Source of the DNA: Planctomycetota bacterium | GTDB lineage: Bacteria > Planctomycetota > JAMOSO01 | DNA: 64,000 bases | Direction of reading: 5' to 3' | NCBI GenBank assembly: GCA_027063065.1 | Contig: JAMOSO010000011.1 | Span: 5,370 to 69,369 of the forward strand | In this document: one piece after another, positions 19,158 through 44,519 of the stretch | How positions within the stretch are numbered: the stretch's first letter is position 1 | Layout: every line of letters begins with the position of its first letter | Notes under the pieces: model-generated | What the model was told of the DNA's origin: nothing | Databases searched by the model: none | Seen by the model: only the letters and a program-made list of their open reading frames with translations | Program-made: the position numbers and the translations under genes

Positions 19158-19772
19158 TTATTTTTCTATAGTACCTATCGGCGCTATAGTCTTGCCATAA
19201 ACCTCATTAAGTACCTGTGCTAATCCAGTGTAGATTGCAGAAAAACCACAAAAAAGACCTTCATAGCCTGCTATAGTTTTAATATTTGCACTATGCGTAT
19301 AATCTCCATAGGCTAACAAGAAAAACAACACTGTTAAAGATGCAAAAACAACTTGTAATGCTCTATTTAATCTTAACGTTGCAATAAATAACACACCTGT
19401 AAAAATGCCCCACATAGACAAATATGCTACCATAGCCATTTCTGCTGGCGCTGCAATTAATCCCATTTTTGGCATAATGATTAATAATACTAATGAAATC
19501 CAAAAAAATCCATAAGATGTAAATGCTGTAGTTGCAAATGTATTACCTTTTTTCCATTCCATAATGCCAGCAATAACTTGTGCTGTACCACCATAGCACA
19601 AACCCATTGCTAATATCATAGAACCTAAAGAAAAAATACCTGCATTATGAAAATTCAAAAGCACTGTTGTCATTCCAAATCCCATTAACCCTAATGGTGC
19701 AGGGTTTGCTGTATTATCCTGTTGTATGGTTATTGTTTTTGTAATCTCGACAGGATTATTATCTTTACTCAT
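19158..19772 (-). CDS. satP: GPR1/FUN34/YaaH (SatP) family acetate/succinate channel
   Basis: Signature [40 protein letters not shown], six TM helices. Confidence 0.92.
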
Positions 19773-19864: not shown

Positions 19865-19896
19865 AAAAAAAGGCGGTGATAATTCTATCACCGCCT
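19865..19896 (-). terminator. Intrinsic terminator after glutamine synthetase III
   Basis: 11-bp GC-rich stem AGGCGGTGATA/TATCACCGCCT followed by a U-tract on the minus strand. Confidence 0.85.
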
Positions 19897-19919
19897 CAAT
19901 AATGTATAAACTTTATAAT

Positions 19920-22025
19920 TTATTTAAAAAACAACATCTCTGCATAGGTTGGCAATGGCCATACTTCTGCATCAACAATTTGCTCTAAACTATCCACTAT
20001 TTCGCGAACAGAATTACATGCTGTAAATACTTCATCGCGATATGCTTCTGCACGTTTTAAAGTTTTACTAATAGCATCAGCCTTATCAGTAACTTCTTCT
20101 AAAATGGCAATGCGATCTTGAAGTTCTGCAGTAAGAGTATTTACCTCTTCTAAAGCTTTCATTTGAGCTGATGCATCAACACCTACATCACTAATTGTAG
20201 CAGCAGCAGTTGCTAATCTACCTGTATAATCTAAACAAGTAGGTAAAATTTGACGTTTAACCATTTGAATTGCTGTACGTGCTTCAATATTAATATCCAT
20301 TGAATAACCATCAAGTAATATTTCTTGACGTGCAGTTAATTCAGAAGCTGATAAAACACCTTGACGCTTAAATACATCTTTATTTTTCTTACAATTTAGT
20401 TGAGCTAAAGCAGAAACAGCATTAGGAAAATGAGGCAGACCACGTTTTTCAGCAATCGCAACCCACTCTTCATCATAACCATCACCATTAAAAACTACCT
20501 TCATATTTTCTTTGGCAATTTTAGTTAAAATACCTTCAAGTTCTGTTTTTGGATTATTAGATTTTTCTAATTGCTTAGCAATATCCTCAAGAATATCAGC
20601 TACAATAGTATTCATCACAATACAAGCGGCAGCTGCATGCACTGTAGAACCAGGCATACGGAATTCAAATCTATTTCCTGTAAATGCAAAAGAAGATGTA
20701 CGATTACGATCTGTTGTATCTTTAGCAACACTAGGTAATTGAGATACGCTTAAACTAATTTTACCACCCTTTTTAGATGATTTAGCTGTACCTTTTGCCA
20801 ATTTCTGAAAAATATCATCTAATTGTTCACCCAAGAAAATAGAAATAATTGCTGGCGGTGCTTCACAAGCACCTAAACGATGATCATTACCTGTGGTAGC
20901 AATAGAGCTACGCAATAATCCAGCATATTCGTCAACAGCTTTAATAACTGCCGCACAAAACACTAAAAACACATCATTATCATGAGGATTTTGACCTGGA
21001 TCTAATAAATTGACTCCTGTATTAGTAAACATTGACCAATTATGATGCTTGCCACTACCATTAATACCAGCAAAAGGTTTTTCGTGAAGTAAGCACACAA
21101 AATCATGTCGTTCTGCAACTTTTTTCAATTTTTCCATAACTAAAACATTATGATCTGCTGCAATATTGACTAATTCAAAAACAGGAGCCATTTCGTATTG
21201 TGCAGGAGCAACTTCATTATGCTGTGTTTTAGCTGTTACACCTAATGCCCATAACTCTTGATTTAAATCTGCCATGAATGAAGCTATGCGTTCATGCAAT
21301 GCACCAAAATAGTGATCGCTTTTTTCTTGACCACGAGGGGCAGGTGCGCCAAAAAGAGTGCGTCCACATAAAACTAAGTCTAAGCGATCTTCAAAAAAAT
21401 CACGATCAACTAAAAAATATTCTTGTTCACAACCTAAGGTAGAACTAACTTTTGTTACATCAGTTTCACCTAAAGCATTTAATACGCGAGTTGCTTGTTT
21501 GCTTAAAGCGTCAACAGAACGCAATAAAGGAGTTTTTTTATCTAAAGTTTCACCTGTGTAAGAATAAAACATAGTTGGGATAAACATAGTTCTGTTATCA
21601 CCATCACCTTTAACAAATACTGGAGACGTACAATCCCAAGCTGTATATCCGCGTGCTTCAAATGTATCGCGTAAACCACCGTTTGGAAATGAAGAAGCGT
21701 CTGGTTCGCCTTGGATTAATTCTTTACCGCGAAATTCAGTAACTACAGAACCATTGCCAGTTGGATCAATAAAAGAGTCATGTTTCTCAGCAGAAGTTCC
21801 TGTCATAGGATGGAACCAATGACAATAATGTGTTGCACCACGCTCTAATGCCCAATCTTTCATGGCAGAGGCAATCACATCGGCAATACTTTGATCGAGA
21901 GCAACACCATTATCGATAGTATTGCGCAAAGATTTATAAACGCTCTTTGGTAAACGCGCGCGCATTACATCATCATTAAAAACATCACAGGCAAATATGT
22001 CTGTTAAATTATTTTGTTCATTCAT
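19920..22025 (-). CDS. glnA: Glutamine synthetase type III
   Basis: 701 aa. GATHYCHWFHP, AEKHDSF, GEPDASSFPNGG, HNEVAPAQYE, HEKPFAGINGSGKH, DRNRTSSFAFTGNRFEFR, C-terminal WPLPTY. Confidence 0.95.
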   Translation of the reverse strand: MNEQNNLTDIFACDVFNDDVMRARLPKSVYKSLRNTIDNGVALDQSIADVIASAMKDWALERGATHYCHWFHPMTGTSAEKHDSFIDPTGNGSVVTEFRGKELIQGEPDASSFPNGGLRDTFEARGYTAWDCTSPVFVKGDGDNRTMFIPTMFYSYTGETLDKKTPLLRSVDALSKQATRVLNALGETDVTKVSSTLGCEQEYFLVDRDFFEDRLDLVLCGRTLFGAPAPRGQEKSDHYFGALHERIASFMADLNQELWALGVTAKTQHNEVAPAQYEMAPVFELVNIAADHNVLVMEKLKKVAERHDFVCLLHEKPFAGINGSGKHHNWSMFTNTGVNLLDPGQNPHDNDVFLVFCAAVIKAVDEYAGLLRSSIATTGNDHRLGACEAPPAIISIFLGEQLDDIFQKLAKGTAKSSKKGGKISLSVSQLPSVAKDTTDRNRTSSFAFTGNRFEFRMPGSTVHAAAACIVMNTIVADILEDIAKQLEKSNNPKTELEGILTKIAKENMKVVFNGDGYDEEWVAIAEKRGLPHFPNAVSALAQLNCKKNKDVFKRQGVLSASELTARQEILLDGYSMDINIEARTAIQMVKRQILPTCLDYTGRLATAAATISDVGVDASAQMKALEEVNTLTAELQDRIAILEEVTDKADAISKTLKRAEAYRDEVFTACNSVREIVDSLEQIVDAEVWPLPTYAEMLFFK

Positions 22026-22080
22026 CCTAGGTTAACTCCGTTTAAAAAAATAAATAGTCTCTAAATATTATTGCTACAAT

Positions 22081-22097
22081 AGCGAATAACATACCAA
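22081..22097 (-). promoter_or_regulatory. sigma54 (-24/-12) promoter for glutamine synthetase III
   Basis: Minus strand TTGGTATGTTATTCGCT has exact GG-N10-GC spacing and lies 55 bp upstream of the ATG. Confidence 0.7.
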
Positions 22098-22169
22098 TTA
22101 TATAAATGATATAACCATCCCATTCTATAGACTTTTAACATAAAATACCAATAAGCATACAAAAATAAT

Positions 22170-22212
22170 TACCATTATGTATTTTTTTTTGTTTTAAAAT
22201 TACATAATGGTA
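22170..22212. promoter_or_regulatory. Paired inverted 12-mers: candidate enhancer (UAS) and/or nadE terminator hairpin
   Basis: TACCATTATGTA (22170-22181) and TACATAATGGTA (22201-22212) are exact reverse complements, 73-115 bp upstream of the sigma54 promoter. Confidence 0.55.
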
Positions 22213-23841
22213 TTAACTTGGTTTATAACTATTATGTATTGGCATACGCCTATCGCGTCCAAAAGCTTTTGGCGTAATCTTAACACCTGGAGGTGATTGA
22301 AAGCGTTTAAATTCAGCACGATCCACCAACCTAACCATATTGACGATTGTTTCATGCTCAACCCCATCTATGACAATTTCAGAAGGGTTCATATCTTTTT
22401 CTACATAATCTTCTAAAATTTTATCTAATATTTCATAAGGTGGCAAAGAGTCTTCATCTTTTTGATCTGGACGTAATTCTGCTGACGGTGGTCTGTCGAT
22501 AATACTCTCTGGTATAATCTCTTTATTAGCTCGTTTATTACAATAACGTGAAAGTTCAAATACTAATGTTTTAGGTACATCTTTTATAACAGCAAAACCG
22601 CCGTTCATATCTCCGTATAAAGTACAGTACCCAACTGCCATCTCAGACTTATTACCTGTAGTTAAAAGTAACCAACCGTGTTTATTTGACAAGGTCATCA
22701 ACATTGCACCGCGTATGCGAGCTTGTAAATTTTCTTGTTCAACACCTGGTTGACCTCCACCTAATGGTTCAGACAACACATTTAACGTAGTTTTAAAAAT
22801 ATCAATAATTGGCAACTCATAAAATTTTACACCCAATTGAAGCGCCATCTTTTTGGCATCATTTTTTGTACCATCAGATGAATATTGTGATGGCATAGAA
22901 ACAGCAATTACATTTTTTGAGCCAAAAGCGTCTACTGCAATTGCTAAAACTAATGCCGAGTCTATTCCACCGCTCAAGCCAAGAACTACTTTTTTTATGC
23001 CATTTTTAGTAACGTAATCTTTAGTACCAATTAATAAAGCTTGGTATATTTCTTCTAAATAATCCATTGGAGGTACAATTTCTGCACTAACTACATCACC
23101 TTGAATTTGCACAACTAAGTCTTCTTCGCTAAATTGAGAGGCTGCAGCAACAATATCACCTTTTGAATTACAAACTAAAGAGCCACCACAAAAAACCAAC
23201 TCGTCTTGAGCTCCAATCAAATTGGAATGCACAATAAAACAATTATTACGTTTAGCAAATTTTTGCATTACTCCACGCCTTTGATTTGCTTTGCCAGCAT
23301 AAAATGGTGAAGCAGAAAGATTAAAAACAAGATCTACATTATGTTCTTTAACCCACAAATCTAAATTAGAATTTTCAATCCAAACATCTTCACATATTGA
23401 AACAGCACATCGTTTACCAGCTGCTTCAAAAACCAGTGGATTTGACCCAGATTTAAAATAACGTTTTTCATCAAAGACTCCATAATTTGGTAATTCTACC
23501 TTGCGATAAATACCCGCCAACTCTCCGTCACTTAGTAAAGCGGCTGAATTATAAATAGAGCCATCTTCCGCCAATTCTGGAAACCCAACTATAGCAGTAA
23601 TTCCTTTAGTTTTTAGCTTAATTTCTTCTAACTTAGATTTACAATCTTTCAAAAAAGCTTTACGTAACAATAAATCCTCGGGTGGATAGCCACATAGAGC
23701 GAGTTCCGGAAAAATAACAATATCTTCAACGCTTTCTTGTGCTCGGCGTATTGCCTTAATGATACTAGCCGTATTGGCACTTAAATCACCAACACTACAA
23801 TTTATTTGCGCTATACTTATACTTAAACGATTATCCGTCAT
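22213..23841 (-). CDS. nadE: Glutamine-dependent NAD+ synthetase
   Basis: Nitrilase-type glutaminase domain (FPELALCGYPPEDL, YRKVELPNY, ICEDVW) fused to a synthetase domain (LGLSGGIDS, ENLQARIRG, TTGNKSEMAVGY, PPSAELRPDQ). Confidence 0.95.
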   Translation of the reverse strand: MTDNRLSISIAQINCSVGDLSANTASIIKAIRRAQESVEDIVIFPELALCGYPPEDLLLRKAFLKDCKSKLEEIKLKTKGITAIVGFPELAEDGSIYNSAALLSDGELAGIYRKVELPNYGVFDEKRYFKSGSNPLVFEAAGKRCAVSICEDVWIENSNLDLWVKEHNVDLVFNLSASPFYAGKANQRRGVMQKFAKRNNCFIVHSNLIGAQDELVFCGGSLVCNSKGDIVAAASQFSEEDLVVQIQGDVVSAEIVPPMDYLEEIYQALLIGTKDYVTKNGIKKVVLGLSGGIDSALVLAIAVDAFGSKNVIAVSMPSQYSSDGTKNDAKKMALQLGVKFYELPIIDIFKTTLNVLSEPLGGGQPGVEQENLQARIRGAMLMTLSNKHGWLLLTTGNKSEMAVGYCTLYGDMNGGFAVIKDVPKTLVFELSRYCNKRANKEIIPESIIDRPPSAELRPDQKDEDSLPPYEILDKILEDYVEKDMNPSEIVIDGVEHETIVNMVRLVDRAEFKRFQSPPGVKITPKAFGRDRRMPIHNSYKPS

Positions 23842-23872
23842 TTTTTATCCTATGATAATTAATAAATTAAAT

Positions 23873-25423
23873 TTAAACACGATATCTTTTATAGCTGATA
23901 GCATATTTTTTAACACGCAAGCCCATAATACGTTCTGTAATACCCAAACTATCAGCTGCCTTAGCCATATTACCCCTAGTGCGTTTTAATGCCTCGATAA
24001 TTAATTCTCGCTCAACATTTGCCATAGTCATATCTAAAGTAGACTTATCTGCAGTATCACTTGCCTCAGCTGTTTGCAATGTTGCTGGCAAATGATGACC
24101 ATGAATAACATCATCGCTGGTCAACAACATCGCACGTTCGATACAATTTTCAAGTTCTCTGACATTGCCAGGCCAATGATAGGCCATCATCATATCTATA
24201 GCTGGTGTTGAAATACGCCTAACATCCTTTAAATTTTCTTTATTAAATTTTTCAATAAAATGATTTGCTAATTGCAAGATATCTGTACGCCTTTCTCTAA
24301 GCGGTGGCAAATGAATTGGAAACACATTTAATCTATAAAATAAATCATCGCGAAAAGTCCCTTCAGCTACATGTTTTTCTAAAGCTCTATTTGTAGCTGT
24401 AATAATACGTACATCCACTTTTACAGTGTGCATGCCACCCACACGTTCAAATTCTTTTTCCTGCAACACGCGCAATAATTTAACTTGTAAATCCTGTGAT
24501 ATTTCACCTATTTCATCTAAAAATAATGTACCTCCATTTGCTAACTCAAAACGTCCTTTGCGAGTTGCAATTGCTCCTGTAAACGCCCCTTTTTCATGGC
24601 CAAACAGTTCTGATTCTAACATAGAATTTGGTAATGCTGCACAATTTACTTTGATAAAAGGCTTGTTAGAACGCAATGAATTAAAATGAATAGCTTGAGA
24701 GACTAACTCTTTACCTGTACCACTTTCACCCATAATTAGCACTGTTGCATTAGATTGCGATACTTGCCCTATTAAATCATAACAATCCTGCATTGCCTGT
24801 GAATTACCTATAATATTATCTGGTCTAAACCTATCTTTTAGCTGTGATTGTAACCGTTCATTTTCGTCTAATAATCGTTGACGATCTTCCATAGCTGTTT
24901 GACGCATCTTTACAGCTTGCGCCATCATAGAGGCTATAACTCTTAATAATCTAGATTCTTCATTTAGATTATGATCAATATCAAAAGGCAAATAAACACT
25001 TAATGTACCAATTGTGTCTGTACCCAATTTTATAGGAACACACACAAAAGATAATTCTTCATTCTGATTTGCTTTAACCCCTGTTAAATTTAAAAAAGTT
25101 TTTTCTTGTGATATCTTAATTATTGACACTGCTTTACCAGTTTGAAAAACCTTGCCTGTAATACCCTGTCCTGGTTTATAAGAACCTTTTTGTCTTTGAT
25201 CAGAACTAAGACCGTGAGCAGCCATAATGTTAATCTCTCCAGTAGTTCTATCGTGCAATGTCAATGTGCCATGACGCATAATAGTATGTTCTGATATAGC
25301 CTGCACCACAGGCTCAACAACATCGCGTATATCCATACTAGATTCTAAAATACTACTAATTTCAAATAACAAGTTTAATTCTGGAACTTCCTTTTTAATC
25401 TTAGTTCTGGATTGTTTTGACAT
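23873..25423 (-). CDS. NifA-like GAF-AAA+-HTH sigma54-dependent transcriptional activator
   Basis: N-terminal GAF ([15 protein letters not shown]), [32 protein letters not shown]-terminal Fis HTH. Start moved to ATG 25423 because the longer ORF begins inside a promoter. Confidence 0.9.
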
Positions 25424-25451
25424 AAAGTTCCCGTATATTAAAAAAGACATA

Positions 25452-25480
25452 AATGTAAGAATATGATACCTATTTGTCAA
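25452..25480 (-). promoter_or_regulatory. sigma70-type promoter of the NifA-like activator, overlapped by two candidate operator sites
   Basis: TTGACA-N17-TACATT on the minus strand. The 12-mers GACATAAATGTA (25446-25457) and TACCTATTTGTC (25467-25478) overlap the -10 and -35. Confidence 0.65.
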
Positions 25481-30192: not shown

Positions 30193-32517
<2,325 letters not shown>

Positions 32518-37883: not shown

Positions 37884-39734
37884 ATGACAACACCTTTAGA
37901 AATATTAAAAACAATATATGGATATGATGCCTTTCGTCATAATCAAGATGCTGTTATTGAAACGCTTTGTCTTGGCAAAGATGCTCTTTGCCTTATGCCA
38001 ACTGGTGGAGGTAAATCATTATGCTATCAAATACCTGCATTAGTCCGCAAAGGTACTGGCATTGTTGTGTCGCCATTAATTGCATTAATGCAAGATCAAG
38101 TTAATGCTCTAAAACTACTTGGAATTAAAGCTGATTTTATCAACTCAAGCCAAAATATAACGACACAAAACCAAGTTAAGCAAAGATTGCAAAATGGTCA
38201 ATTAGATATTTTATATGTTGCGCCAGAACGACTATTAATGCCACAGACACTTGATTTACTAGCAACCTGCGAAATATCACTTTTTGCTATTGATGAGGCT
38301 CATTGCGTAAGTCAATGGGGACATGATTTTAGACCAGAATATCAAAAACTCTTTATTTTACATCAAAGATTTCCAACTATACCAAGAATAGCTTTAACTG
38401 CTACTGCCGATAAACGAACAAGAGCAGAAATTATAGAACAATTAGACTTAGCTAATGCAAAACAATTTATTAATAGTTTTGATAGACCTAATATCAAATA
38501 TACTATTACCGATGGCGATAATGCCAAAGTTAGATTGCTAGATTTTATAAACACTTACCATCCAAATGAAGCTGGCATTATATATTGTTTGTCTCGCAAA
38601 AAAACAGAAGCCATCGCTGATTGGTTAAATACAAAAGGCAGGCGTGCCCTTCCCTACCATGCAGGATTGCCTGTGGAAGAACGAAATAATAACCAAGAAA
38701 CATTTTTACGAGATAGCTCTACAATTATAGTGGCAACTATTGCTTTTGGTATGGGTATCGACAAACCAGATGTACGTTTTGTAGCTCACTTAACGTTACC
38801 TAAAAGTATCGAAGCCTATTATCAAGAAACAGGACGCGCTGGGCGTGATGGATTGCCATCAAATGCATGGATGGCATATAGCTTGCAAGATGTCATTATG
38901 TTACGTCAAATGATTGAAGAAAGCTCTGGAAACGAACTATACAAACGTATTACTAAACAAAAATTAGAAGCTATGTTAAGTTTATGTGATTGCTATACAT
39001 GTCGCAGACAAATTATCCTAAATTATTTTGACGAATATGTACCTGACAAATGCAATAATTGTGATGTATGTATTGAACCACCTCAAATGCAAGATGCCAC
39101 TATAGCATCACAAAAAATATTAAGCTGTGCCTATAGAACAGGTCAAAGATTTGGTTCTAGTTATTTGATTGATGTTTTACTGGGCAAAGAAACAGATAGA
39201 ATTTTAAATAATAACCATCATAATATTTCTACATTTAATATTGGCTTAGAGCACAGCTCTATAGAATGGAAACATATTGTTCGACAATTAATTGTATCAG
39301 GCTATCTAAAAACTGATAATGAAGGCTATGGAGGACTACAATTAACTAAACAATCAAAAAGCATTTTAATAGGCAAACAAAAAGTGTTGATTAGACAATT
39401 TAAAAAAAATAAATTAAAATCTAAACAACACAACAAACATTCATACACTAATAACAATGAAAAAAAATCTAATTTATTTGAACATTTGCGCAAAATAAGA
39501 TTTACTATGGCAAAAAAAGAAAATGTCCCTGCTTACAGAATTTTTCCTGATAAAACTTTAGAAGCAATGTCCCATTTTAAACCTGACAGTTTAACAAAAA
39601 TGTCTAAAATATCAGGAGTAGGTGACAAAAAACTACATAGTTATGGTAAAATTTTCATCGATGCTATTCAAACTTTTCAAATAAAAAAAGAAACTAAAAG
39701 CACCTCAACCTCAACCCCTGATTTTTTAGGCTAA
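37884..39734 (+). CDS. recQ: ATP-dependent DNA helicase RecQ
   Basis: [59 protein letters not shown], Zn-binding CNNCDVC, RQC and HRDC (VPAYRIF) domains. Confidence 0.96.
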
Positions 39735-43049: not shown

Positions 43050-44519
43050 TTATAATAAATCGTATTTTTTCATTTTTTTCCAAATAGTCATACGACTTAA
43101 ACCAAGGGCTTCTGCAGCTTTAGTGCGGTTCCACCTTGTTTTTTCTAAGGTGTCTATTAAAATTTTTTTATCTGTCTCTGGATTTTTTAACTGTTGTGCA
43201 ACTTGCCATAAAGATTGCACATCACTTTTTGATACATCTACAGCAACATCACATAATGAGCCTTCATAAGTATCATCAAATGTATTGCTAAATCTTTCGT
43301 TAATATCACTCATACCCATTCTTAATTCATGCGGTAAATGCTCTTCTTCTATAGTAGTACCATTGCATATAACAAAAGCATATTCAATAGCATTTTCTAA
43401 TTCTCTAATATTTCCCGGCCAAGAATGCTGCGTTAAAATTGCCATTGCTTCCGTTGAAATAGAAGTAATATCCTTTTGCATTTTTCGTGAAAATTCCACC
43501 AAAAAATGATGCACCAACAACGGTATATCATCTCGCCTAGCTGATAATGAAGGTAATTTAATAGGGAAAACTCTTAACCTATAATATAAATCTTCACGAA
43601 ATTTTTTATGAATTACTGCAGTAGTTAAATTTACATTTGTAGCGCTCACAATACGCACATCAGCATGTCTAGTAATTGACTCACCAACCCTTTCAAAAGT
43701 TTTTTCTTGCAAAAATCTTAGTAACTTAACTTGTATAGGCGGTGCTAAATCACCTATTTCATCCAAAAATACAGTTCCGCCCTCGGCAGCTTCAAAACGA
43801 CCAACCTTATCTTGATATGCTCCCGTAAAAGAGCCTTTAACATGACCAAATAATTCACTCTCTAAAAGTGCCTCTGGTATAGCAGAACAATTAATTTTAA
43901 TAAATGGTTTGTCTTTTCTTTTAGAAAAATGATGTATAGCATCCGCGACTAATTCTTTTCCTGTGCCACTTTGACCCAAAACTAACACGGCAGCATCTGT
44001 AGTGGCTGCTTGACGTATTTGCTCATAAACTTGCTCCATCAAAGGATGTTTACCTATCATCTTATGAACTTTACGTTGGTCGCCAACCCGCTCAATTTGC
44101 TTTTCCAAACCTCTTTGTTTGCGCTGGGCTTGCCTTAATGAACTAATATCTTCTAATATTTCACCTAAAAAAAAGGCTCTTGTATTGTGATCAACCAATG
44201 ATAATTGTCTAGCAATAATCGGCACTAAACGCCCATCTAAACTACGTATTACCTTTTCCTCTGGTAGCGGTATCACATCTTGCCCCATAGGACCTGCAAT
44301 ACCATCTTTAAAATCATTTAAAATATATTTAGTATGTAATTTATCATTTAGTTCTTCACATGATTTATTAAGAATACTGCTTGCCTTAACACCTGTGATT
44401 ATTTCACAAGCACGATTCCAATAACATATATAACCATCAGAATTAAGTAAATAAATACCTTCATATACCTTATCTAATGTCTGCAACAAAATAGAATGTG
44501 TTAAATTTTGCATTAACAT
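43050..44519 (-). CDS. PAS-domain sigma54-dependent transcriptional activator
   Basis: N-terminal PAS (EGIYLLN...WNRACEIITG), GQSGTGKE, ELFGHVKGSFTGA, WPGNIRELEN, Fis HTH (WNRTKAAEALGLSRMT). Confidence 0.9.
   Translation of the reverse strand: MLMQNLTHSILLQTLDKVYEGIYLLNSDGYICYWNRACEIITGVKASSILNKSCEELNDKLHTKYILNDFKDGIAGPMGQDVIPLPEEKVIRSLDGRLVPIIARQLSLVDHNTRAFFLGEILEDISSLRQAQRKQRGLEKQIERVGDQRKVHKMIGKHPLMEQVYEQIRQAATTDAAVLVLGQSGTGKELVADAIHHFSKRKDKPFIKINCSAIPEALLESELFGHVKGSFTGAYQDKVGRFEAAEGGTVFLDEIGDLAPPIQVKLLRFLQEKTFERVGESITRHADVRIVSATNVNLTTAVIHKKFREDLYYRLRVFPIKLPSLSARRDDIPLLVHHFLVEFSRKMQKDITSISTEAMAILTQHSWPGNIRELENAIEYAFVICNGTTIEEEHLPHELRMGMSDINERFSNTFDDTYEGSLCDVAVDVSKSDVQSLWQVAQQLKNPETDKKILIDTLEKTRWNRTKAAEALGLSRMTIWKKMKKYDLL

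Follow-up and report, generated by a model that had tools for sequence, protein, structure and literature searches.

We analyzed three neighbouring genes in a 64,000-nucleotide stretch of DNA from a Planctomycetota bacterium (contig JAMOSO010000011.1 of assembly GCA_027063065.1); the whole stretch is called the window here, and positions are those of the window unless another contig or locus is named. The genome comprises 2.13 Mb in 71 contigs, with a G+C content of 34% and a completeness of 90.5%, and its closest kin among 40 GTDB representatives share its phylum at best. The three genes, all on the minus strand, encode a sigma-54 activator, a glutamine-dependent NAD+ synthetase (nadE) and a type III glutamine synthetase (GSIII); the DNA upstream of GSIII holds a match to a sigma-54 promoter, preceded by two candidate enhancer boxes of the form TAC-N6-GTA. 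These elements are the following:

23873..25423, minus strand: sigma-54 activator of 516 amino acids with GAF, AAA+ (GAFTGA) and Fis-type helix-turn-helix (HTH) domains, assigned with Pfam and NCBIfam

22213..23841, minus strand: nadE, with CN_hydrolase and NAD_synthase domains (NF010588, 706.7 bits against a cut-off of 479)

22201..22212, no strand assigned: distal candidate enhancer box TACATAATGGTA, TAC-N6-GTA, beginning 116 nt ahead of where the promoter match starts, directly after the nadE stop

22170..22181, no strand assigned: proximal candidate enhancer box TACCATTATGTA, TAC-N6-GTA, beginning 85 nt ahead of where the promoter match starts

22081..22097, minus strand: sigma-54 -24/-12 promoter of GSIII, TTGGTATGTTATTCGCT (GG-N10-GC in the reverse complement)

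19920..22025, minus strand: GSIII, with GSIII_N (2.5e-77), Gln-synt_C and Gln-synt_C-ter domains

An earlier note on this DNA, made from the sequence alone, had read these elements as a nitrogen control circuit, and every string that it quoted was found where it had been placed.

The activator showed Pfam matches to GAF (1.5e-10), Sigma54_activat (1.1e-73) and HTH_8 (5.6e-11). It scored 556.1 bits with the NCBIfam model of nifA (TIGR01817), above the cut-off of 528.85, and 370 bits with that of NtrC (TIGR01818), below the cut-off of 558.6, having a GAF domain in the place of the receiver domain. Its best match among solved structures was a Nif-specific regulatory protein (9qq6_C, E 1.2e-115, residues 15-510), and the GAF domain matched the structure of Aquifex Nlh1 (4g3k, E 1.7e-21). 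The Walker A and GAFTGA columns were invariant in an alignment of 23 homologues; moreover, spirochaete and Desulfomonile homologues bearing exact TAC-N6-GTA boxes have nearly the same recognition-helix region. As for the start of the gene, ATG 25423 is more likely than TTG 25480 of the listed open reading frame (ORF), because GGGA lies 6 nt upstream of it. Homologues with 50-67% identity were found in Desulfobacterota, Spirochaetota, Hydrogenedentota, Planctomycetota, Verrucomicrobiota and Acidobacteriota.

GSIII is the only glutamine synthetase that was found (a whole-genome search with PF00120 gave one match), and profile searches returned one rpoN and one PII gene. A search for nifH with PF00142 yielded no convincing match in this 90.5%-complete genome, only three partial matches of 26-29 bits spanning at most 59 residues, the best of which (29 bits, 59 residues) was read as ParA/MinD-type; at the same completeness, no GlnD domain was found.

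From the boxes to the ATG of GSIII at 22025, the coding strand contains, by eye, no GG-N10-GC other than that of TTGGTATGTTATTCGCT. Upstream of it, TACCATTATGTA and TACATAATGGTA form an exact 12-bp inverted repeat with a gap of 19 nt, their centres being 31 bp apart, and on a 16-nt matrix derived from relatives both boxes score 11.2 bits. The earlier note had described two inverted copies of one string, which is exact; but each 12-mer is a complete palindromic TAC-N6-GTA site and not half of a repeat, the pair being a tandem of two sites. The statement that this motif differs from the canonical NifA site was borne out, as TGT-N10-ACA is absent from 22026-22230 and occurs in the whole window 24 times with 21.9 expected. 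The consensus drawn at that stage, KACAWAWWKGTA, matches the window four times with 1.0 expected, a number reached by 5 of 100 shuffled sequences; since it was built from the same four sites, this count is circular and was rejected as a test, and the weight thus rests on tests in other genomes.

To that end, 80 public homologue loci were used (832 kb), which contain 157 exact boxes. Gene order was of little help: neither nadE nor GSIII lies beside the activator in any of eight orthologue loci among the GTDB relatives, and either of them is near the activator in only 4 of the 80 public loci. Direct synteny being uninformative, footprinting was carried out on the amtB and glnA neighbours instead. 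Among the ORFs immediately downstream of the homologues (n = 66) there were 14 amtB, 5 glnA, 1 nifH and 1 PII; the footprint set comprised 19 spacers leading from the activator to a co-directional amtB, glnA or nifH (5089 nt), in which every 3-nt palindrome with a gap of 2-12 nt was counted and compared with 30 shuffled sets. TAC-N6-GTA ranked first, with 25 matches in 17 of the 19 spacers (shuffled sets: mean 1.3, maximum 6), while the best count of any palindrome pattern across the 30 shuffled sets was 10; ranks two and three were taken by the nested patterns ACA-N4-TGT and CTA-N8-TAG. The boxes in these spacers sit upstream of good sigma-54 promoters. Phylogenetic footprinting, one of the checks that had been proposed for the motif, thus returned the same palindrome.

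The spacing of the boxes is conserved as well. When exact boxes separated by 0-60 nt are paired, the 80 loci give 26 pairs, and the gap is 18 nt in 15 pairs, 19 in seven, 20 in two, and 36 and 37 in one each; 24 of the 26 therefore have a gap of 18-20 nt, equal to three helical turns from centre to centre. GSIII itself was found with boxes and a sigma-54 promoter in two other activator-bearing genomes, one of the pairs having a gap of 19 nt, and in a spirochaete it lies inside an activator-amtB-glnK-GSIII cluster; nadE also follows glnA in two homologue loci. The proposal that a GAF-AAA+-HTH activator stands beside GSIII, with a sigma-54 promoter and paired boxes upstream, has in this way gained comparative support.

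A quick tree of 80 activator rows placed the window protein only loosely, inside a group of 31 rows with a support of 81; this group contains 11 of the 14 amtB-adjacent rows, three of the five glnA-adjacent rows and the nifH-adjacent row. In a Syntrophorhabdaceae locus (L052:7540-7810) the paired boxes TACATTTATGTA-N19-TACGTTTGGGTA lie between the activator and nifH, and therefore some members of the family probably control nitrogenase too. In the same tree, the activator of a contig labelled uncultured Bifidobacteriaceae (L087) is nearly the same as the one in a Vicinamibacterales locus (Acidobacteriota, L086), their branches measuring 0.006 and 0.034; the contig probably owes its label to wrong binning.

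Within the genome there are 356 exact TAC-N6-GTA boxes and only two exact pairs with a gap of 8-30 nt; the GSIII pair is the only one in the 2.13 Mb with a gap of 17-20 nt. When 1874 crude genes were scanned for a sigma-54-like promoter having an exact box 30-230 nt upstream, eight were flagged, GSIII (boxes at 85 and 116 nt) and amtB (82 nt) included, amtB being the commonest neighbour of the activator family. The amtB-glnK operon, located on contig C27, has a promoter of the form TGGYAT-N5-TCGCT with its box 82 nt upstream. Of the three occurrences of this form in the genome, two are those of GSIII and amtB-glnK, and the third, which no box precedes, is within a nuo gene. The GSIII promoter, weak by itself, is backed by other sequences of the genome, namely the promoter form and box of amtB-glnK. 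Two other matches of the scan were treated as chance, one on C50 in the nuo operon, where the supposed promoter is within the nuoA coding sequence, and one on C31 with its box inside murB. Regarding the earlier suggestion that boxes should be sought before other sigma-54 promoters, amtB-glnK has one, and gltB has neither a box nor a sigma-54 promoter upstream. The circuit had also been called self-contained, a description that has to be abandoned because amtB-glnK, on another contig, has the same promoter form and box; a PII protein is present too.

A scan of the genome with the matrix for single boxes was also tried as a test and discarded as not specific, with 163 matches of at least 9 bits. 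The top matches are ACTACGTAAACGTAGC at C3:24228-24239 (17.9 bits) and CCTACGCAACCGTAGC at 31187-31198 of the window (15.9 bits), neither of them at a known nitrogen gene. At 38872-38887 (plus strand) the window has a near-perfect sigma-54 consensus, TGGCATATAGCTTGCA; as it is inside an ORF of 616 amino acids (37884-39734), it is probably a chance match.

The amtB-glnK genes occupy L107:1768-3327 (minus strand). The only PII protein of the genome is encoded there (L107:1768-2109, minus strand, 113 amino acids); by eye, its T-loop, GCGKQEGFREHYRGKELN, lacks a Tyr at the usual uridylylation position, and the protein is 50-56% identical to the PII encoded after amtB in spirochaete loci. When the GAF domain of the activator (residues 1-200) and this PII were submitted to a complex prediction from alignments, the score was 0.00 against a mark of 0.32. 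Divergent from amtB-glnK, on the same contig C27, is an ORF of 682 amino acids (L107:3593-5641, plus strand) in which an AA_kinase domain (5.3e-47) is fused to a class-III aminotransferase (1e-111), and which looks like an ArgB-ArgD fusion. PII regulates N-acetylglutamate kinase in some other organisms.

The motif is not novel, having been predicted in 2015 for the regulon of DVU1949, a single-component sigma-54 activator of the sulfate-reducing Desulfovibrionales studied by comparative genomics (Kazakov et al. 2015, BMC Genomics 16:919, PMC4641369). The predicted targets listed there are amtB-glnB, glnA, the own operon of the activator and the type III glutamine synthetase DVU1258, for which a sigma-54 promoter is given; the sites centre on TTTACA-N4-TGTAAA, and several pairs are 30-32 nt apart as read by eye. 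The window activator resembles DVU1949 in being of the single-component sigma-54 type with GAFTGA intact, in its TACCATTATGTA-N19-TACATAATGGTA arrangement, which precedes a sigma-54 promoter and has the core TACA-N4-TGTA (the lists were compared by eye), and in its targets, here GSIII and amtB-glnK, each having a box and a sigma-54 promoter. The two differ in that the window boxes favour TAC/GTA at the outer positions and have AT flanks, and in that the regulon here seemingly comprises only GSIII, amtB-glnK and the own operon. In a full-text literature search DVU1949 was named in Kazakov et al. 2015 alone and no experimental study of its regulon was found; likewise, nothing was found joining NifA, type III glutamine synthetase and glnN. 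That the present system is a further case of a nitrogen regulon known so far from prediction only is well supported by these sequence comparisons.

Several observations weigh against control of GSIII by the activator through these boxes. The sigma-54 promoter of GSIII is weak: TTGGTATGTTATTCGCT fits 8 of 11 consensus positions, the genome has 1716 matches this good in 4.26 M position-strands (0.058 expected per 145 nt), and it would not stand alone. In the matrix scan, more than 45 of the 163 matches outscore the GSIII boxes and are unexplained, so single boxes are not specific. Where the activator orthologue is closest (64% and 57%, in two of the genomes searched), GSIII is found without boxes. 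The perfect inverted symmetry of the GSIII boxes does not occur in relatives, whose pairs are direct in their T-rich centres (by eye), and a terminator role could thus explain part of the sequence upstream of GSIII. Finally, the DVU1949 protein was compared over a DNA-binding stretch of 42 amino acids, with ~15/42 identities by eye.

The possibility of a terminator deserves attention, as the 43 nt of the boxes also form a hairpin in the transcript of the upstream genes:

22170..22212, minus strand: RNA hairpin of 12 bp followed by AAUUAUUUUUG (U-rich), the same 43 nt as the boxes, starting at the nadE stop codon

The terminator scan missed this hairpin because it permits loops of only 3-8 nt; in a fold of 76 nt over it the minimum free energy is -15.1 kcal/mol (z-score -3.40), and none of 200 shuffled sequences folds as well. 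One could thus suppose that the repeat is only the terminator of the activator-nadE transcript, that GSIII is transcribed from a sigma-70 promoter or by read-through, and that the sigma-54 match is due to chance. The location of a stable hairpin right after the nadE stop and before a U-rich run agrees with this explanation, as do the weakness of the sigma-54 match, the uncommon symmetry of the boxes and a sigma-70-like site with 9/12 positions at 22151..22122. Nevertheless, it leaves out that the arms of the hairpin are exact boxes with the 18-20 nt gap of the family, the only such pair in the genome; that the same rare promoter form and box distance recur at amtB-glnK, where no upstream gene needs a terminator; and that in other genomes, as well as in the published Desulfovibrio regulon, boxes and a sigma-54 promoter accompany GSIII. 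We therefore consider it very unlikely that the repeat acts as a terminator only, and the roles of terminator and enhancer are not mutually exclusive.

A second explanation accepts both sigma-54 promoters, those of GSIII and amtB, and assigns them, wholly or in part, to a receiver-domain activator of the NtrC family, the GAF protein merely modulating. The genome does encode four receiver-domain sigma-54 activators, and in D. vulgaris the amtB operon is assigned both to DVU1949 and to the response regulator DVU3220, according to PMC4641369. None of the four reaches the NtrC cut-off, however, the best scoring 424.3 against 558.6 bits, and both promoters carry boxes of the kind that belongs to the GAF activator family, one member of which is encoded near GSIII. 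This alternative seems to us quite improbable; the independence from NtrBC proposed in the earlier note is nonetheless a conjecture.

What was observed is which genes are present, the sequence elements, how these are conserved and spaced in other phyla, and how nearly unique they are in the genome. The reading that we consider likely goes further: the GAF-AAA+-HTH protein would be a one-component nitrogen regulator, NifA-like and of the DVU1949 or Aquifex Nlh1 type, controlling GSIII and amtB-glnK by means of the boxes and sigma-54. In particular, it very probably switches on the only glutamine synthetase of the genome through the two conserved boxes and the sigma-54 promoter.

The activator gene has a promoter of the sigma-70-like type (TTGACA-N17-TACATT, 10 of 12 positions), and no GG-N10-GC was found upstream of it. 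Two operator-like boxes lie on this promoter:

25467..25478, no strand assigned: distal operator-like box TACCTATTTGTC (coding strand GACAAATAGGTA), starting 55 nt before the ATG and overlapping the -35 TTGACA (25480..25475)

25446..25457, no strand assigned: proximal operator-like box GACATAAATGTA (coding strand TACATTTATGTC), starting 34 nt before the ATG and covering the -10 TACATT (25457..25452)

This arrangement, with boxes on the -10 and -35 of the sigma-70 promoter, was recovered as first described, and nadE is probably co-transcribed with the activator from that promoter: the gap from the activator stop to nadE is 31 nt and no terminator was called between them. DVU1949 likewise has sites upstream of its own operon, with which the two one-mismatch boxes at -34 and -55 may be compared, the difference being that here nadE is probably co-transcribed and the own promoter is sigma-70-like with boxes on its -35 and -10.

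Whether these 12-mers are operators was weighed against their being chance look-alikes in AT-rich DNA, in which case the activator would not be autoregulated. Each of them has one arm that does not fit TAC/GTA; they are 9 nt apart and not 18-20; they score 8.2 and 2.3 bits on the family matrix; and the degenerate pattern KAC-N6-GTM that unites them was fitted afterwards, the K and M having been picked after the sites of the earlier note and the Desulfovibrio list had been seen. In the homologues, on the other side, an exact box occurs within 250 nt upstream of the called activator start in 26 of 72 loci, mostly at -14 to -70, against ~3.6 loci expected from a background of 0.2 boxes per kb; the starts were called crudely, as the first ATG, GTG or TTG, so these positions are approximate. 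By eye, several of the homologue boxes follow a -35-like cTTGcg and help, with their 3' end, to make up the -10. Moreover, two KAC-N6-GTM boxes within the 70 nt upstream were found in none of 1833 other crude genes, and the own-operon sites of three Desulfovibrio strains begin with TTGACA, like the distal box of the window, in the lists of PMC4641369. A chance origin of the two 12-mers is in our opinion unlikely, and on balance we lean towards autorepression of the activator, a view held with restraint because of the crude starts in the relatives and of a degenerate pattern picked with hindsight.

Downstream of nadE, the hairpin and AAUUAUUUUUG could possibly act as a weak terminator of the activator-nadE transcript. 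Since the paired boxes of relatives are not mirror images, their symmetry here may have been selected for partial termination of that transcript. A parallel to the activator-nadE unit is seen in genome G031 (L019:1888-5309, minus strand), where the 64%-identical orthologue of the activator is followed 20 nt downstream by glmS, encoding a glutamine amidotransferase, and has an exact box, TACATTTCCGTA, just upstream of TTGCAA-N17-TATAAT. In addition, nadE clusters with PII genes and NadE-Gln binds PII, as stated by Santos et al. (2020). One may imagine the 43 bp as an enhancer on the DNA and a leaky terminator on the RNA, with the activator sharing a box-controlled sigma-70 transcript with an amidotransferase that consumes glutamine (glmS in the orthologue and nadE here), a conserved design that would protect glutamine; we regard this combined scheme as doubtful. 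If true, a dual element of 43 bp would set basal versus induced synthesis of the only glutamine synthetase, and the level of a glutamine consumer would depend on how far the regulator itself is bound. As to glutamine supply and NAD synthesis, the link suggested in the earlier note is speculation.

As to the flanking region, a strong intrinsic terminator follows GSIII:

19870..19897, minus strand: intrinsic terminator after GSIII, with a stem of 12 pairs (6 of them G-C), a 4-nt loop and a T run

Downstream of GSIII there is an acetate uptake transporter (AceTr, 284.6 bits) at 19158-19772 (minus strand), whereas an rnfA-led Rnf cluster runs from 25775 onward on the plus strand, divergent from the activator. 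The window holds a second sigma-54 activator at 43050-44519 (minus strand), of 489 amino acids with PAS, AAA+ and HTH_8 domains.

The system can be compared with three other known regulators. Enterobacterial NtrC activates the sigma-54 promoter of glutamine synthetase, glnAp2, from paired enhancer sites, and sites over sigma-70 promoters (glnAp1, glnLp) repress. The logic at the present locus would be the same, with activation from paired sites and repression at a sigma-70 promoter, but the input is a GAF domain and not a phosphorylated receiver, the DNA motif is another and no NtrB partner would take part. Proteobacterial NifA shares with the window protein the GAF-AAA+-HTH architecture, the score above the TIGR01817 cut-off and the full-length match to a Nif-specific regulatory protein, together with predicted activation of a sigma-54 promoter from roughly 80-150 nt upstream; it differs in that no nifH was found in this genome, in the site, which is TAC-N6-GTA and not TGT-N10-ACA, and in the Cys-rich linker, which by eye the window protein lacks. 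Nlh1 of Aquifex aeolicus, which is reported to bind upstream of glnBA, has the same GAF-AAA+-HTH architecture (GAF structures 4G3K and 4G3W). According to a review, Nlh1 presumably governs the assimilation of nitrogen and not its fixation, and the ligand of its GAF domain is unknown.

We infer binding, activation, repression and termination from the DNA in the following way. Dimers of the activator would bind the two palindromic TAC-N6-GTA boxes just past the nadE stop; upon a low-nitrogen signal at the GAF domain, for which 2-oxoglutarate or PII are the usual candidates, the AAA+ ring would open the sigma-54 complex and GSIII would be transcribed. Very probably the same protein activates amtB-glnK on the other contig, from a promoter of the same form with a box at the same distance. 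The two degenerate boxes on the -35 and -10 would probably let the activator repress the activator-nadE transcript, which the hairpin of the GSIII boxes, with its U-rich tail, may partly terminate; read-through past this hairpin would supply basal glutamine synthetase.

Annotation pipelines call this family NifA, here in a genome where no nitrogenase gene was found, and the evidence points instead to a regulator of ammonium assimilation. The activator family is present in at least six phyla, with an enhancer that is readable and strictly spaced; having seemingly only two enhancer-dependent target operons and a single glutamine synthetase, this bacterium would offer a simple system for the study of the motif, of the three-turn spacing rule and of the signal perceived by the GAF domain.

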